Below are positions 5,384-12,055 of a DNA stretch of 64,000 bases, piece after piece. A program made the position numbers and the translations under genes. Under the pieces are notes generated by a model. That model did no database searches and had not been told where the DNA came from. It saw nothing but the letters and a program-made list of their open reading frames with translations. Source of the stretch: Patescibacteria group bacterium. GTDB lineage: Bacteria; Patescibacteriota; Patescibacteriia; 2-01-FULL-39-33. Numbering within the stretch: the stretch's first letter is position 1; every line of letters begins with the position of its first letter. Where the stretch lies: contig JBAZMW010000002.1 in assembly GCA_041649575.1 (NCBI GenBank), positions 1,934 to 65,933 on the forward strand, given 5' to 3'.

Positions 5384-6121
5384 ATGAAACAAGAAGAAAA
5401 AAAAATAATCATCTGGTTGGTCGTTATTATCGTTGCTATTGTTCTGGTGGCGGCCGGTTATTTTTTAATAAAAAACAGGAATAATTTGTTCAAGCAACCG
5501 GCTCCAGTCAGTGCCGAGTTTAGTATTTACGGGCCGATTGATTATGCCAAGTACGAAAAAATTGGTTTAAAAAAAGAAAAAGTGGATATTTTGTTTGGGA
5601 AAATGAAAGAAACGACTGAAGCGCTGAAGATAAAGCCCAACGATTATGATTATTTAATCCAGCTCGGCGGTTTTGAAAAGATCTTAAAAGAGTATGATGC
5701 CGCCCTAAAGACTTACAGCCAGGCCATCTCGGCTTTTCCCGATTACGGCGTGGCTTATGCCGAAACAGCGGATATTTATATTTACCCTTTGGGCCGGTAC
5801 AACGAAGCCGAGGATTATCTCAAGAAAGCGATAGAGAGAATGCCTTATCGCAGCGATTATTATCGTTGGCTGGCGGATTTGTATATTGCCAAGTTCCCTC
5901 AAAAGAAAGCGGAGATCGAGCCGTTGATGCTTCGCGGCGCCAAGGAAACTCCCTCCAACGCCCTGTCTTTTTATAGTTATCTGGTGGTTTATTTTCAGCG
6001 GGAAGGCGATTTCAATAAAGCGATTACTTATACCAATAAATGCGTTCAAATCGCTCCCGAGGCCGAGAGAGCCAATTTCCGGCAGACTCTGGGCGAGCTC
6101 CAGGCTGAACTGAAAAAGTAA
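5384..6121 (+). CDS. Membrane-anchored tetratricopeptide-repeat (TPR) protein.
   Basis: N-terminal TM helix IIIWLVVIIVAIVLVAAGYFLI. Repeated 34-residue A/Y/L-patterned units (AxxxYxxAIxxxP). Confidence 0.65.
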   Translation: MKQEEKKIIIWLVVIIVAIVLVAAGYFLIKNRNNLFKQPAPVSAEFSIYGPIDYAKYEKIGLKKEKVDILFGKMKETTEALKIKPNDYDYLIQLGGFEKILKEYDAALKTYSQAISAFPDYGVAYAETADIYIYPLGRYNEAEDYLKKAIERMPYRSDYYRWLADLYIAKFPQKKAEIEPLMLRGAKETPSNALSFYSYLVVYFQREGDFNKAITYTNKCVQIAPEAERANFRQTLGELQAELKK

Positions 6122-6163
6122 AAATACTTAGATACCGCAATCTGGTAATATTTTTTTACTTTT

Positions 6164-9715: not shown

Positions 9716-9730
9716 TCTAACCTTTAAGAT

Positions 9731-12055
9731 ATGAACCAATCTAAAATTTTGGTATTGATTCCCAAGGTCATTATCTGGCTGTGTCTGGCCGTTATTTTAT
9801 TCTCGCCCCTTTATGTCAGCAGCCATCTTTTTTTTCCTTTTATCGTCACCAAAACCCTGGTTTTTAATATTGCGGTAGAGGTAATGGTTTTGGCTTTTTT
9901 GTTTCTGGCCAGCATAAGTGGCGACTATAAAATCAGGATTAATTTGGCGGTTATCTTGGTCGCGGTTTATATTATCTTGTCTTTCATTTCTTCTTTGGCG
10001 GGCGATAATTTTTACCGCAGTTTCTGGAGCAATAACGAAAGAAGCGAAGGATTGCTCCTCTTACTACATCTCTTTTTGTTTTTGGTGGTGCTTTCCAGCT
10101 TCTTTAGAAAAATAAAGAGTTGGCTTTTGGTTTTTGACACTTTTTTCTTCGCCAGTTTTCTGGTCGCTTTGATTGCCCTGGGTCAGTATTTCAAGCTTGA
10201 TTGGCTTTTTGCTTCCGGTGACGGCCAGCGCCTGGCCGGCACTATTGGTAATGCCGGCTATATGGCCGGCTACTTGGTTTTTGCCGTTTTTCTGGGCTTA
10301 TTATTGGTTTTTAAGCGGAAAACCATTTATTTGAAAATTTATTATCTGATAGTAATGGCTTTGGAGGTCTTTATTATTTTCGGTACTGGTACAAGGGGTG
10401 GTATGCTGGCGCTGTTGCTTGGAGCTTTTTTGTTTGTCTTGTATTTACTTTTCTTTTATTTCAAAAATAAATATTTAAAATTGGCCGGAGTGGTGGTTAT
10501 ACTTTTGGCTTTGGGGCTGCCCTTGGTAGTGTTTGCCAATAAAGATTCACATTGGGTGAAAAGTAATTTTGCCCTGAACAGACTTTCCACTATTTCCGCC
10601 ACCACGGTCACCGCTCAATACCGGTTTATGACTTGGCAAGCGGCTTGGCAGGGCTTTAAGAAAAAATCCGTCCTTGGTTGGGGTCAGGAAAATTTTTATC
10701 AACCGTTTGACAAATACTTCAATCCTAAAATATTTCGTCATGGTGGTTCGGTGGTTTGGTATGATCGCGCTCACAATATAGTTTTTGACCGCTTGGTTAC
10801 CGGCGGCATCCTGGGCCTGCTGTCTTATTTGGCGCTTTTGTTCGTTCCTTGTTATTTTTTGTGGCGCCAGCGGGCGAAAAAGGAACCAGAGGCGGGCAAT
10901 GACCAAGAAAAAAAAGGCAAGAGATATTTCATCCAGGTGATCTTTTCTTTAATTGTTCTGGCTTATTTTATTCAGAATTTGTTTATTTTTGAGGCTTTGG
11001 CTACTTATATTCCTTTATTTCTGGTATTGAGCTTCATTGGCTTGTTTGGTTGGAGCTACGATTGGCAGCCGCTAGCCAGCCGCCGTGTCAAGTTAGCGTT
11101 TTTTATTTTTTGGCTGATTGTTTTTTTACCGATTCTATATTTTGTCAACCTCAAGCCGCTCAATGCCAACTTGACCCTGACCAAAGCTTTAAGCAGCCAG
11201 GATTTGAGTGTTAGCGAGAGAATTGATCTTTTCAAACAAGTTTTGTCGCAGCAGACCCCGGGTAATCAGGAATATCGACGGCAGCTGTTCAATCTTTTGG
11301 AGGCGTTGATTACCCAAAAGTTCCCGGATAAAAAAGTTATTTCCGACCTGGCCGATTTTACCGGCAGCGAATTAAACAAACAGATCGCCGAAAACCCCCA
11401 CAGTGTTTCCAATTATTTGCTACTGATGAGATTCAACAGTTCCATGTTCAGTCAGACCGGCAATCTCGATTATCTTAATAAAAACTTGGATCTTTTTGAT
11501 CAGGCCAAGGAGCTGTCGCCGGCCCGTCAGGTTATATATTTTGAAATCGGCTATTCCTACATAGCCATGGGTAATTATTTTAAACAAACTAGCCAGGGGG
11601 AGATGGCCCAGAAATATTATGATTTGGCCGTAGATAACTTTCGTTACGCCCTGGAGTTAAACGATACTAATTTCGAATCATACAGGCAGTTAATAAGCGC
11701 CTTAATTTATGCCGGTAAAAACCAAGACGTGCTAGATTTTATCGACCAAATGAATCAGAAGGAAAAAGAAAAAATAATGGATGATTACGATCACACCAGT
11801 TTTTTTACCAGCGTCATTAACATCGGCGTTTCAGTAAAAAATTACCAAATTGCAAGATCGATGGCCCAAAAACTGATTGAGATAGACCCCAAAAATCCTT
11901 TGTATTATGTCCAACTGGCTTTAGCTGAAGCCTATTTAGGCAATAACAATGAGGCTATAACAGTAGCTCAAAAAGTGGCGGAATTCGGAGACGATTACAA
12001 AAAACAGTCTGAAGATTTCATCCAAAAGGTAAAAGCGGGCGATTTTTCCAAGTAG
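9731..12055 (+). CDS. O-antigen-ligase-like (Wzy_C) polytopic membrane protein with a C-terminal TPR region; candidate O-oligosaccharyltransferase.
   Basis: GTGTRGGMLALLLG motif in a periplasmic loop, typical of the WaaL / PglL / WsaB Wzy_C family. About 12 TM helices. C-terminal ~330 aa soluble and TPR-like (YYDLAVDNFRYALELNDTNFESYRQLISALIYAG). Confidence 0.6.
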   Translation: MNQSKILVLIPKVIIWLCLAVILFSPLYVSSHLFFPFIVTKTLVFNIAVEVMVLAFLFLASISGDYKIRINLAVILVAVYIILSFISSLAGDNFYRSFWSNNERSEGLLLLLHLFLFLVVLSSFFRKIKSWLLVFDTFFFASFLVALIALGQYFKLDWLFASGDGQRLAGTIGNAGYMAGYLVFAVFLGLLLVFKRKTIYLKIYYLIVMALEVFIIFGTGTRGGMLALLLGAFLFVLYLLFFYFKNKYLKLAGVVVILLALGLPLVVFANKDSHWVKSNFALNRLSTISATTVTAQYRFMTWQAAWQGFKKKSVLGWGQENFYQPFDKYFNPKIFRHGGSVVWYDRAHNIVFDRLVTGGILGLLSYLALLFVPCYFLWRQRAKKEPEAGNDQEKKGKRYFIQVIFSLIVLAYFIQNLFIFEALATYIPLFLVLSFIGLFGWSYDWQPLASRRVKLAFFIFWLIVFLPILYFVNLKPLNANLTLTKALSSQDLSVSERIDLFKQVLSQQTPGNQEYRRQLFNLLEALITQKFPDKKVISDLADFTGSELNKQIAENPHSVSNYLLLMRFNSSMFSQTGNLDYLNKNLDLFDQAKELSPARQVIYFEIGYSYIAMGNYFKQTSQGEMAQKYYDLAVDNFRYALELNDTNFESYRQLISALIYAGKNQDVLDFIDQMNQKEKEKIMDDYDHTSFFTSVINIGVSVKNYQIARSMAQKLIEIDPKNPLYYVQLALAEAYLGNNNEAITVAQKVAEFGDDYKKQSEDFIQKVKAGDFSK

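Follow-up and report, generated by a model that had tools for sequence, protein, structure and literature searches.

The locus described here most likely makes a sugar-coated surface layer, judging by its layout, and is best read as an S-layer-type O-oligosaccharyltransferase system; from sequence comparison, the probability of this reading is put at about 0.45. It lies on a contig of a MAG of an uncultured, ultra-small member of the Patescibacteria, of which a window of 64,000 nucleotides was analysed. Expression would be controlled by an ECF sigma factor and its DUF5667 partner. The large protein BIG (1400-5236), in which Ig-like domains are strung behind an N-terminal module that would hold it to the wall, is the probable S-layer or major surface protein. 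A glycan would be built on a polyprenyl-diphosphate carrier by a WbaP-like phosphotransferase and cytoplasmic GT4, GT2 and GT9 enzymes. Methyltransferases and radical-SAM enzymes would tailor this glycan, and a Wzx-like flippase would flip it. At the external face of the membrane, the Arg-Arg-His site of the Wzy_C-TPR enzyme (9731-12055) would move it en bloc to BIG, and perhaps to small Ser/Thr-rich proteins, at a Ser/Thr (or Tyr) hydroxyl. The TPR domain fused to this enzyme and the membrane-anchored protein sTPR (5384-6121) would hold or present the protein substrate. PMT_2 and TMTC-like GT-C enzymes may add single sugars from the polyprenol-phosphate-sugars of four GT2 synthases, attaching them either to the protein itself or to the glycan as side branches; they would be lineage-specific accessories, outside the core.

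Conserved core and the Wzy_C-TPR enzyme

All genes described in the initial annotation were confirmed at their coordinates, and all are on the forward strand. The three enzyme genes (6164-7948, 8000-9715 and 9731-12055) are flanked on both sides by genes for secreted proteins with 23-32% Ser+Thr, and they head a ~50-kb glycan island. The window opens within the gene for a DUF5667 membrane protein (5-1153, + strand; Pfam DUF5667, E 2.4e-12), which is truncated by the window start. An ECF sigma factor gene (sigma70_r2/r4) is found directly 5' of it on the source contig (L001); the DUF5667 protein is probably the anti-sigma partner of this factor. sTPR (+ strand) is the first gene in the region covered by the initial annotation and was absent from its description. 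It encodes a 245-aa protein with TPR matches and one membrane helix (residues 8-26), and its TPR domain is predicted to be extracytoplasmic.

Comparative genomics gave a conserved core of the ECF sigma factor, the DUF5667 protein, BIG (~1250 aa), sTPR, Wzy_C-TPR and a pair of GT4 glycosyltransferases. Among 28 species-level loci whose flanks reach at least 6.5 kb, BIG lies 5' of Wzy_C-TPR on the same strand in 21, which bears out the link of this large secreted protein to the Wzy_C enzyme seen at first. The sigma factor and DUF5667 pair precedes BIG in 17 of the 28, and also in four of five distant loci. Homologues of sTPR follow BIG in L004, L005, L051 and L054, and in 12 of 28 GTDB loci (tblastn). 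When the search was reversed and started from BIG homologues (27-31% identity), Wzy_C-TPR was found after BIG in two of five loci; L051 and L053 have BIG without a nearby Wzy_C, and L054 has BIG and the small TPR protein without Wzy_C or glycosyltransferases. The link between BIG and Wzy_C is therefore frequent, not obligatory. The best explanation is that the locus is the head of a surface-glycoconjugate region common to many Patescibacteria, mostly of Parcubacteria-type lineages.

Wzy_C-TPR (774 aa, + strand) is a WaaL-fold transferase of lipid-linked glycans with 13 membrane helices (hydropathy scan) and a TPR superhelix of about 300 aa. The Pfam Wzy_C model covers residues 208-367 (E 3.2e-19; 69.6 bits, cut-off 31.7), and TPR models match weakly at residues 625-750; the AF2 model has a pLDDT of 92.1. 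The 13 helices and the positive-inside count (15 vs 4) place the catalytic loop and the TPR domain both outside, an orientation in keeping with the initial interpretation. R222, R298 and H348 are invariant across 63 homologues. In alignment with E. coli WaaL the arginines fall on its essential R215 and R288 (PMC3643930), and the His-Asn motif aligns with Cupriavidus WaaL. Sequence does not distinguish ligases, O-oligosaccharyltransferases (O-OTases) and polymerases with Wzy_C domains (PMC3643930, PMC9829042). Identity of the enzyme stays at 42-61% over many candidate orders, whereas the glycosyltransferases encoded beside it vary, which suggests a ligase rather than a polymerase. By its fold, catalytic residues and topology, Wzy_C-TPR is a candidate O-OTase, with a putative protein acceptor. 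A role as lipid-A ligase is ruled out by its origin in Patescibacteria, a group which we take to lack LPS.

GT-C enzymes and the glycan island

The domain calls first made for the three enzymes agree with Pfam (PMT_2, PMT, Wzy_C and TPR) and with helix counts of 9, 9 and 13; of the models proposed for checking them, only DUF1736 was unmatched. The 6164-7948 gene (+ strand) encodes a TMTC-like GT-C of 594 aa, with nine membrane helices (hydropathy scan), PMT_2 at residues 71-223 (E 2.2e-11) and five strong C-terminal TPRs at residues 415-590 (Pfam). The plan is that of the eukaryotic protein O-mannosyltransferases TMTC1-4, in which luminal TPRs come after a GT-C membrane domain; here the TPRs would be extracytoplasmic. 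D36, D37, YRP69-71, H92, E184 and ERY337-339 are invariant in the family. Of the TMTC motifs (PMC7801869), the family keeps M1 (the DD of outer loop 1, which is invariant), M2 (SHxxYRP) and M7 (ERxxY, here ERYxY). The likeness to TMTCs stands on these three motifs; it does not extend to DUF1736, which Pfam leaves unmatched in this protein, to M4, matched by its Glu alone with Lys replaced by Tyr, or to the DW motif, which was not recognised. We know of no characterised bacterial member of this type. The second GT-C (7982/8000-9715, 577/571 aa, + strand) belongs to the PMT_2/PMT family (PMT_2 E 8.7e-23; PMT E 7.7e-8) and has nine membrane helices (hydropathy scan), a DD motif at residues 44-45 and a soluble C-terminal domain of ~170 aa.

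The three enzymes had been taken to form one machine. The link of Wzy_C-TPR to BIG survives from that proposal; the GT-Cs are not a conserved part of it. The flanks of 45 related loci contain no homologue of the TMTC-like gene, and a PMT_2 gene lies directly 5' of Wzy_C in about six distinct loci (L005/L010, L006-L009 and L016). Both genes are accessories, the first specific to the source genome and the second found in a minority of relatives.

Downstream, the first core GT4 is divergent (14231-15379, - strand; Pfam). It has homologues in most related loci, and in 16 of the 28 with long flanks it lies 3' of Wzy_C on the opposite strand. It is followed by a short (284 aa) nucleotide-sugar dehydrogenase-like protein (15452-16306, + strand) kept in many relatives, with 55-78% identity in most that have one and 33% in the most distant. 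The second conserved GT4 (17095-18237, + strand) was recognised by profile match and by its presence in relatives. The assembly and tailoring island proper (18234-57902) encodes ~10 further GT4/GT9/GT2 enzymes, a Wzx-like flippase (43201-44538), five SAM methyltransferases, nine B12-radical-SAM enzymes and two deacetylases. It also holds PMT_2 GT-Cs beyond those first reported (19667 and 34952) and two more polytopic proteins, 48601 with a weak PMT_2 match (E 0.011) and 33152 with no Pfam match. An initiating polyprenyl-phosphate glycosylphosphotransferase of the WbaP/WcaJ type (57911-59269, - strand) has five membrane helices and strong profile matches (Bac_transf E 7.9e-68; TIGR03025 372.7 bits, cut-off 295.55). 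Profile matches at 61075-63360 (+ strand) identify a GtrA-like small membrane protein, an epimerase/dehydratase and a PpgS-like GT2 (62698). This GT2 and three in the island (25527, 36731 and 57012) had been described as four Dpm1-like polyprenol-P-sugar synthases; their best matches agree (Dol-P-hexose transferase, AglJ, ArnC, PgfS and PpgS), all under the equivalog cut-offs. The pair of C-terminal helices that characterises GtrB is present in two of them (hydropathy scan).

There is about an even chance that the GT-Cs 6164, 8000, 19667 and 34952 are branching enzymes of the GtrC/ArnT type, not protein O-mannosyltransferases; as such they would take single sugars from polyprenol-phosphate donors and add them to the glycan, either lipid-linked or already transferred. 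Only this part of the system is at issue, and the possibility is compatible with Wzy_C-TPR acting either on protein or on a wall polymer. Five or six GT-C-like proteins are scattered through the island, in company with the four synthase-like GT2s and the GtrA-like protein; relatives have fusions of PMT_2 with cytoplasmic GT4 domains; and the patchy occurrence of the two accessory genes is as expected for variable decorations. A curated protein-O-mannosyltransferase model gives 22 bits for 6164 against a cut-off of 800, and no match for 8000. However, 6164 retains TMTC-type motifs together with a large TPR domain, features tied to protein substrates in TMTCs, and its gene is positioned between those of the surface protein and the ligase; in L051, a GT2 and PMT pair lies beside BIG with no Wzy_C nearby.

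Surface proteins and their shared module

BIG (1278 aa, + strand) has a signal peptide, an alpha/beta module of ~200 aa, a linker and about nine Ig-like beta-sandwich domains; the AF2 model (pLDDT 87.7) is all-beta beyond residue 250. It has no match in Pfam or NCBIfam. Family length is near-constant (~1150-1300 aa), syntenic genes in L003-L005 are 32-61% identical, and source-named members are all from Patescibacteria or unclassified bacteria. A strong intrinsic terminator follows the gene (5269-5303, + strand; 16-bp stem with 10 G-C pairs, T run), with a promoter-like site just after it (5309-5336). BIG is probably monocistronic and highly expressed. Its architecture, constant family length, amino-acid composition and own terminator make it a probable S-layer or major surface protein, and it is a candidate glycan acceptor.

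The flanking secreted proteins are Ser/Thr-rich as first described: 24% in BIG, 32% in p213 and 23% in p423, against 19% in the DUF5667 protein and 6-14% in the remaining window ORFs. BIG is also high in Ala, Gly and Val and low in Cys (five only), Met and His. Its Ser and Thr are evenly distributed (7-17 per 50 residues), without mucin-like tracts. Such uniformity is typical of beta-rich surface-layer proteins and is no marker of glycosylation sites; the richness is therefore not specific evidence for glycosylation. The small secreted or anchored protein p213 (12221-12862, + strand) has homologues in L004, L006, L008, L012, L014, L016 and L025 and is a possible further acceptor, and full-length homologues of p423 (12897-14168, + strand) are limited to the closest relatives. 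BIG, p213 and p423 each have a signal or anchor helix. The two small proteins had been proposed as substrates; they occur only in the closest relatives.

The N-terminal module of BIG (1487-2134, + strand) recurs at the C-terminus of p423 (13692-14096; 36% identity to BIG residues 35-158) and of a secreted subtilase (59367-61067, + strand; Peptidase_S8 E 5.9e-53), where it spans 60459-61022 (39% identity, E 8e-35). It has no sequence relationship to any Pfam family. A search at E<=1e-3 gave 2571 cluster representatives, with the module at either terminus of proteins of 220-1750 aa and with partner domains including Big_1, Peptidase_S8 and PG_binding_1. It is mobile among many extracellular proteins, including subtilases and Ig-repeat proteins, and probably serves, on this sequence evidence, as a cell-surface (wall) anchoring module.

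Since three secreted proteins encoded in the window carry this module, the main rival is a secondary cell-wall polymer, which we regard as somewhat less likely. Wzy_C-TPR would polymerise its repeats or ligate it to a wall or lipid anchor, and BIG, p423 and the subtilase, unglycosylated, would bind it non-covalently through the module, as SLH or CWB2 proteins do in Firmicutes. The sharing and mobility of the module are explained just as well in this way, and some BIG homologues contain PG_binding_1. S-layer genes in Firmicutes often adjoin genes for the anchoring polymer, and TPR domains also occur in polysaccharide-export machinery. The Wzx-like flippase and WbaP-like initiator are accompanied by no other recognisable Wzy polymerase in the window, and an NCBIfam repeat-unit-polymerase model matches Wzy_C-TPR weakly (E 4e-4, under the cut-off). 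On the other hand, Wzy polymerases usually diverge with the repeat unit, whereas Wzy_C-TPR is well kept beside differing glycosyltransferase sets. Neither a Wzz chain-length regulator nor an LCP-family ligase was found among the window ORFs. Two Wzy_C paralogues stand in tandem in four loci, which fits acceptor diversification better than polymerisation, and the O-OTases WsfB, PglL and WsaA/WsaB are characterised by a TPR fused or adjacent to Wzy_C (PMC2943079). A lipoglycan, ligated by Wzy_C-TPR to a membrane lipid anchor with BIG adjacent only as a co-regulated envelope gene, is improbable: Wzy_C-TPR has the fold and catalytic residues of WaaL, a lipid-acceptor ligase, and the region follows the sigma factor pair, but no lipid-A or known lipoglycan anchor pathway can be seen in the window, the 300-residue outward TPR domain has no obvious role with a lipid acceptor, and the order BIG, small TPR protein, Wzy_C is kept.

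Comparison with known systems

In three-component GtrA/GtrB/GtrC glycan modification, as in this window, polyprenol-P-sugar synthase-like GT2s, a GtrA-like protein and GT-C enzymes occur together. S-layers anchored to secondary cell-wall polymers, such as SLH proteins on a pyruvylated polymer, likewise have a common module on several surface proteins beside a glycan locus; here the module is unlike any Pfam family, and no LCP ligase was found in the window. WaaL (Cupriavidus metallidurans 7TPG/7TPJ; E. coli) shares the aligned Arg, Arg and His with Wzy_C-TPR at ~16% identity. It lacks the extra helix and TPR domain, and its lipid A-core acceptor would be impossible in an organism without LPS.

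The Gram-negative O-OTases PglL, PglS, TfpO/PilO and TfpM also have a Wzy_C domain with an essential His and two Arg, and act at the external face of the membrane on undecaprenyl-PP-glycans (PMC3643930, PMC9829042); their genes commonly adjoin substrate genes (PMC3643930). They are 420-600 aa long and act mostly on pilins, whereas Wzy_C-TPR has 774 aa, a 13th helix and a 300-aa TPR domain, and its neighbouring candidate substrate is a multi-Ig protein of 1278 aa. The PglL signature (PglL_A, PF15864) is unmatched in Wzy_C-TPR. BIG shares the common architecture of Bacillus S-layer proteins: a signal peptide, an N-terminal module and beta-sandwich domains (PMC13635256).

The analogy to the Geobacillus slg locus proved closer than first claimed. 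In G. stearothermophilus the S-layer gene sgsE is close to the slg cluster, and wsaA, for a small TPR protein, is just 5' of the Wzy_C gene wsaB (PMC2943079); the order BIG, TPR protein, Wzy_C mirrors sgsE-wsaA-wsaB, and sTPR is, by position, an analogue of WsaA. WsfB and PglL have C-terminal TPR motifs (PMC2943079), and both arrangements, the separate gene of WsaA/WsaB and the fusion of WsfB, are found here. A surface-layer gene with its own transcript near a glycan cluster, a WbaP-like initiating enzyme with five membrane helices (WsaP) and methylation enzymes are further shared features (PMC2943079), and an asparagine-synthase homologue in L052 and L055 can be likened to wsfA. Wzy_C-TPR was compared with WsaB, WsfB and PglL by their published descriptions and gene order. 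The slg-type systems belong to another phylum and export by a Wzm/Wzt ABC transporter, in contrast to the Wzx-type flippase here. The present locus is distinguished by its ~50 kb island with nine B12-radical-SAM and five or six GT-C enzymes, by a new anchoring module in place of SLH or SbsC-type domains, and by its position 3' of an ECF sigma factor and DUF5667 pair.

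Surface proteins and the glycan island

Three consecutive polytopic enzymes had been described here by the initial annotation, and all three are present; Pfam and hydropathy agree, and the proposed Wzy_C (PF04932), PMT_2 and TPR domains are matched. The first (6164-7948, 594 aa) combines a PMT_2 domain (E 2.2e-11) with five strong TPRs on its C-terminal side. The second (8000-9715, in an ORF opening at 7982) hits two models, PMT_2 (E 8.7e-23) and PMT (E 7.7e-8). The third is the candidate ligase Wzy_C-TPR (9731-12055, 774 aa), which matches Wzy_C over the Pfam cut-off (E 3.2e-19) and has weak C-terminal TPR matches. 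By hydropathy the three have 9, 9 and 13 membrane helices, respectively.

The flanking secreted proteins are Ser/Thr-rich, as had been claimed. BIG (1278 aa, 1400-5236) and the small proteins p213 (12221-12862) and p423 (12897-14168) each have an N-terminal signal/anchor helix and contain 24, 32 and 23% Ser+Thr; nearly all other ORFs of the window contain 6-14%. A very strong intrinsic terminator (5269-5303; 16-bp stem with 10 G-C pairs) lies directly 3' of BIG. A promoter-like site (5309-5336) comes next, ahead of the gene for sTPR, a 245-aa membrane-anchored TPR protein (5384-6121). DNA repeat searches across 1-16500 gave matches at chance level only.

BIG belongs to a family of nearly constant length which is without annotation. 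It is high in Thr, Ser, Ala, Gly and Val and low in Cys, Met and His. An AF2 model covering residues 1-1200 has good local confidence (pLDDT 87.7). It begins with a signal peptide, continues with an alpha/beta module (about 38-240) and, after a flexible linker, has about nine beta-sandwich domains. Foldseek searches with this model returned generic multi-Ig proteins only (mastigoneme, integrin legs, alpha-2-macroglobulin) and no specific S-layer protein. Bacillus S-layer proteins commonly have a wall-binding domain at the N-terminus and Ig-like domains after it (PMC13635256). From its architecture and context, BIG is a probable S-layer or major surface protein. Ser/Thr richness had also been taken as a sign of glycosylation; the residues are evenly spread in BIG (7-17 per 50 residues), so that the richness by itself does not speak for glycosylation, and clustering was dropped as evidence of glycosylation sites.

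The N-terminal module of BIG (1487-2134) recurs at the C-terminus of p423 (13692-14096; 36% identity) and at that of a secreted subtilase (60459-61022; 39% identity, E 8e-35). It is about 200 aa long, has an alpha/beta structure and matches no Pfam family, and it has 2571 cluster representatives in the protein library. It sits at either end of very diverse extracellular proteins of 220-1750 aa. In a sample of 44 members other than BIG, its partners include Big_1/Invasin_D3 (13), subtilase (9) and Big_5 (8), among others; some BIG homologues also carry a PG_binding_1 domain. Given this end placement, the partner domains and the PG_binding_1 domains, the module behaves like a cell-surface anchoring module, and it is probably an undescribed domain of this kind.

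The rest of the window is one large glycan island. It encodes about a dozen GT4, GT2 and GT9 enzymes, one Wzx-like flippase, a WbaP-like initiating phosphotransferase (TIGR03025 above cut-off), two further PMT_2 proteins, two more polytopic proteins (one a weak PMT_2 match), two deacetylases and one GtrA-like protein. Four of the GT2 proteins have Dol-P-hexose transferase, AglJ, ArnC, PgfS or PpgS as their top NCBIfam model, all under the equivalog cut-offs; GtrB-type C-terminal helices are found only in those at 36731 and 57012. By best family match all four would be polyprenol-phosphate-sugar synthases (Dpm1/GtrB/ArnC-like), in line with the four Dpm1-like synthases originally proposed.

Scattered among the glycosyltransferases at 18234-56166 are nine B12-binding radical-SAM enzymes (e.g. 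18234, 27270, 29858, 39047, 40482 and 45139; minus strand 52334 and 54724), two further enzymes of the radical-SAM type and five SAM methyltransferases. This density is unusual and suggests that the glycan is heavily C- and O-methylated or otherwise modified. One of the nine (52334-54727, minus strand) is a 797-aa fusion of B12-radical-SAM and LPG_synthase_TM (MprF-like flippase/synthase membrane) domains. A GT9 (heptosyltransferase-family) gene is found at 41978-43165, in an organism not known to have LPS; its product may add heptose to the surface glycan. A 284-aa nucleotide-sugar dehydrogenase-like protein without the C-terminal domain is encoded at 15452-16306. It has 55-78% identity in most of the related loci which carry it; given this conservation, it is probably a functional short version rather than a pseudogene.

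Conservation of the locus

The Wzy_C-TPR family is large and well conserved, with at least 475 matches. The 120 matches listed have 41-61% identity, most of them near full length; those with a named source among them are all from Patescibacteria or unclassified bacteria. Three metagenomic loci (44-52% identity) have one common gene order: ECF sigma, DUF5667, a protein of about 1200-1280 aa without Pfam domains, a membrane-anchored TPR protein of about 230-245 aa, a variable insert, and Wzy_C-TPR. Downstream are two GT4 genes, the first of them divergent, and two of the three loci also have a short dehydrogenase-like gene between these. The large proteins of these loci are homologous to BIG over all or most of their length (32-61% identity), with 23-25% Ser+Thr in all.

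Taking one genome per species gave 45 loci, from Buchanan-, Portnoy-, Moranii- and Sungiibacteria, other Patescibacteria, many uncultured MAGs and one Nitrospirales outlier; synteny was counted on the 28 loci with at least 6.5 kb of upstream sequence. A BIG homologue (at least 500 residues aligned) lies upstream on the same strand in 21 of these 28, and three more have only the N-terminal module of BIG. DUF5667 is present in 17 of the 28. The conserved unit differs from that of the initial annotation, which had treated the three enzymes as one system: no homologue of the 6164 gene occurs in the flanks of any of the 45 loci, and the 8000 gene adjoins Wzy_C in about six distinct loci. Homologues of p213 and p423 are found only in the nearest relatives or in scattered loci among the 45. 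Tandem Wzy_C(-TPR) paralogues lie between surface-protein and GT4 genes in four loci (L003, 7760-12079; L011, L012 and L014, around 6700-12000).

Five distant BIG homologues (27-31% identity; L051-L055) provided a second entry point. Four of the five have the sigma and DUF5667 genes ahead of BIG, and two (L052 and L055) have Wzy_C-TPR after it. In L051, GT4s, a GT2 and a PMT come after BIG and a small TPR protein, and there is no Wzy_C in the vicinity; BIG and a small TPR protein lie amid housekeeping genes in L054; and L053 has no glycan genes downstream of BIG. The 28-locus counts and these distant loci indicate an old association of BIG with the ligase, one that is frequent without being obligatory. 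The small TPR protein is tied to BIG no less closely than to the ligase. The Dpm1-like GT2 and the PMT/PMT_2 gene of L051 (19468-21845) come after the surface-protein and small TPR genes, with no Wzy_C within 10 kb; this arrangement may be an alternative, stepwise glycosylation route.

The ECF sigma and DUF5667 genes precede the surface-protein gene at the source locus (L001, 1-1423, before the window start) and in L003, L005, L051 and L052, as in most relatives, and a divergent HTH_17 gene is often found upstream of the pair. This arrangement suggests dedicated regulation of the surface protein. The conserved core consists of sigma/DUF5667, BIG, sTPR, Wzy_C-TPR and the GT4 pair, and the best description of the whole is that of a surface-glycoconjugate locus of Patescibacteria. 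In this genome, an unusually large tailoring island is present and two accessory GT-C genes are inserted between BIG and the ligase.

The first of these accessory genes, 6164, had been called TMTC-like. With its membrane domain alone as query, the proteins retrieved nearly all have C-terminal TPRs and come from several phyla; JGI annotates some of them as protein O-mannosyltransferase. Across 31 aligned members D36 and D37 never vary, and YRP69-71, H132, E184 and E337-x-Y339 are nearly invariant. TMTC proteins are characterised by motifs M1 (DD, first outer loop), M2 (SHKSYRP), M4 (KE(T/Q)xxT) and M7 (ERxxY) (PMC7801869). The 6164 protein keeps M1, M2 (SHQHVYRP, 64-71), the Glu of M4 and M7 (ERY, 337-339), as well as the five C-terminal TPRs. 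The name is therefore justified at motif level. However, Tyr183-Glu184 replaces the Lys-Glu of M4, though the family consensus is SKE, and the expected DUF1736 segment with its DW motif is unmatched by Pfam in 6164 at E<=0.01.

For the second, 8000, PF02366 (PMT) scores 32.6 bits against a cut-off of 22.7 and PMT_2 is much stronger; there is no match to PMT_4TMC or to any NCBIfam model, the curated Pmt model included, and a PDB sequence search with this PMT_2 protein found nothing. Given the patchy distribution of the two genes, the many other GT-Cs of the island and the PMT_2-GT4 fusions in relatives, a role for 6164 and 8000 as glycan-branching enzymes is at least as likely as protein mannosylation.

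Wzy_C-TPR and its possible roles

Residues 208-367 of Wzy_C-TPR match PF04932, the Wzy_C/O-antigen-ligase superfamily, at 69.6 bits (cut-off 31.7). In a confident AF2 model built from 63 homologues (pLDDT 92.1, pTM 0.88), the chain crosses the membrane in 13 helices, with a loop of 80 residues following helix 9, and its C-terminal part forms a TPR superhelix (about 490 to 768). WaaL-fold ligases have twelve helices and a large outer loop that joins helices 9 and 10, and the enzyme has this fold. R222, R298, H348, D345 and R346 are invariant among the homologues. In a profile alignment R222 falls on R215 and R298 on R288 of E. coli WaaL, and the AHN motif aligns with AHN of Cupriavidus WaaL. 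The Arg, Arg and His of E. coli WaaL (R215, R288 and H338) are essential there and conserved in PglL (PMC3643930). R298, G316 and G318 have the numbers of published PglL residues, and the numbers of R222 and H348 differ by one or two (PMC3643930); this likeness in numbering was given no weight. Short loops on the side of the N-terminus contain 15 Lys+Arg against 4 on the opposite side, which places the N-terminus in the cytoplasm; given the 13th helix, the TPR domain is then external, as is the catalytic loop. On the evidence of model and sequence, Wzy_C-TPR is a catalytically competent, outward-acting lipid-linked-glycan transferase with a large external repeat domain; the acceptor of the glycan is presumptive.

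Several specific classes were considered. Patescibacteria are, to our knowledge, without LPS, a lipid A-core acceptor is implausible, and a WaaL (lipid A-core ligase) function was rejected on these grounds. The polymerase model TIGR04370 scores 19.5 bits against a cut-off of 40, and identity as a Wzy repeat-unit polymerase was rejected, as was that as an IctB bicarbonate transporter, whose NCBIfam score is also far under cut-off. Membership of PglL was rejected as well: the membrane domain by itself has no match to PglL_A (PF15864) with the threshold relaxed to E<=10. The O-OTases PglL, PglS, TfpO and TfpM are characterised by a length of 420-600 aa (PMC9829042) and by an adjacent pilin substrate gene; Wzy_C-TPR has 774 aa and its neighbour is a 1278-aa multi-Ig protein and not a pilin. 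It should be noted that O-OTases are indistinguishable by sequence from other Wzy_C enzymes (PMC3643930, PMC9829042); a search for solved structures of characterised O-OTases (PglL, PglS, TfpO, WsaB and WsfB) turned up none.

The reading ranked first is that the locus is a protein O-glycosylation system with an S-layer-type O-oligosaccharyltransferase, to which a probability of roughly 45% is given. A TPR domain fused or next to Wzy_C marks O-OTases in known examples; it is fused in WsfB and PglL, and WsaA is encoded just upstream of WsaB (PMC2943079). The order of S-layer gene, TPR protein and Wzy_C enzyme matches here, the initiating enzyme is also of WbaP type, with five helices, and two relatives carry a wsfA-like asparagine-synthase homologue. 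O-OTase genes, moreover, commonly adjoin the genes of their substrates (PMC3643930), and the tandem duplication of the ligase in four loci suits an acceptor-recognising enzyme better than a polymerase. The observation made in the initial annotation is confirmed, and its interpretation as O-glycosylation is partly supported.

A serious but less probable rival is that the island makes a wall polymer which is bound by the ~200-aa module, Wzy_C-TPR polymerising or attaching this polymer. The occurrence of one anchor-like module on BIG, p423 and the subtilase makes this rival serious, and the conserved adjacency of surface-protein and glycan genes fits it, but fits O-glycosylation equally. A polymerase role is disfavoured on two counts: the enzyme itself is strongly conserved, unlike the sets of glycosyltransferases around it, and no Wzz-family chain-length regulator is found among the ORFs of the window. 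That Wzy_C-TPR is a lipid-anchor ligase is improbable; the 64-kb window contains no lipid A genes and one GT9-family gene.

O-glycosylation is also part of a wider and more doubtful picture. Many Patescibacteria would have a surface layer of one ~1250-aa protein family, anchored by the undescribed ~200-aa module, controlled by an ECF sigma factor and O-glycosylated by a new class of O-OTase (WaaL fold, 13th helix, fused extracytoplasmic TPR domain and separate TPR helper). In this genome the system would be extended by a bacterial TMTC-type protein O-mannosyltransferase and by a glycan heavily methylated by the nine B12-radical-SAM enzymes.

Significance and relation to known systems

Patescibacteria are the ultra-small, mostly uncultured bacteria of the candidate phyla radiation. 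They form a large share of bacterial diversity and live attached to other cells, and their surface layers have been shown by microscopy. A literature search found no identified surface-layer protein family and no protein-glycosylation system for the group; S-layer proteins are predicted in one preprint (10.1101/2024.05.28.596244). Testable candidates are given here: a widespread surface protein family, a probable anchoring module, a small TPR partner and a highly conserved WaaL-fold TPR ligase. If Wzy_C-TPR is a protein O-OTase, it would represent a class apart in structure, with a substrate-binding domain of its own, and would be of interest to glycoengineers. If it builds an anchoring wall polymer, it would define how Patescibacteria attach surface proteins. 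Either answer informs on the cell surface which mediates their attachment to hosts.

No paper describing such a locus in Patescibacteria was found in the literature searched. The known kind which it resembles is the S-layer glycosylation locus with a Wzy_C transferase. As described for WsaB and WsfB, a Wzy_C enzyme with a fused or adjacent TPR protein is encoded near an S-layer gene and a WbaP-like initiator (PMC2943079), BIG being the putative S-layer protein in this likeness. In two relatives an asparagine-synthase homologue follows the Wzy_C-TPR and GT4 genes (L052, 18123-20012; L055, 18092-19861) and recalls wsfA of Paenibacillus alvei. The gene order is shared with loci of the sgsE-wsaA-wsaB type (PMC2943079), and the present locus is a variant of this known kind.
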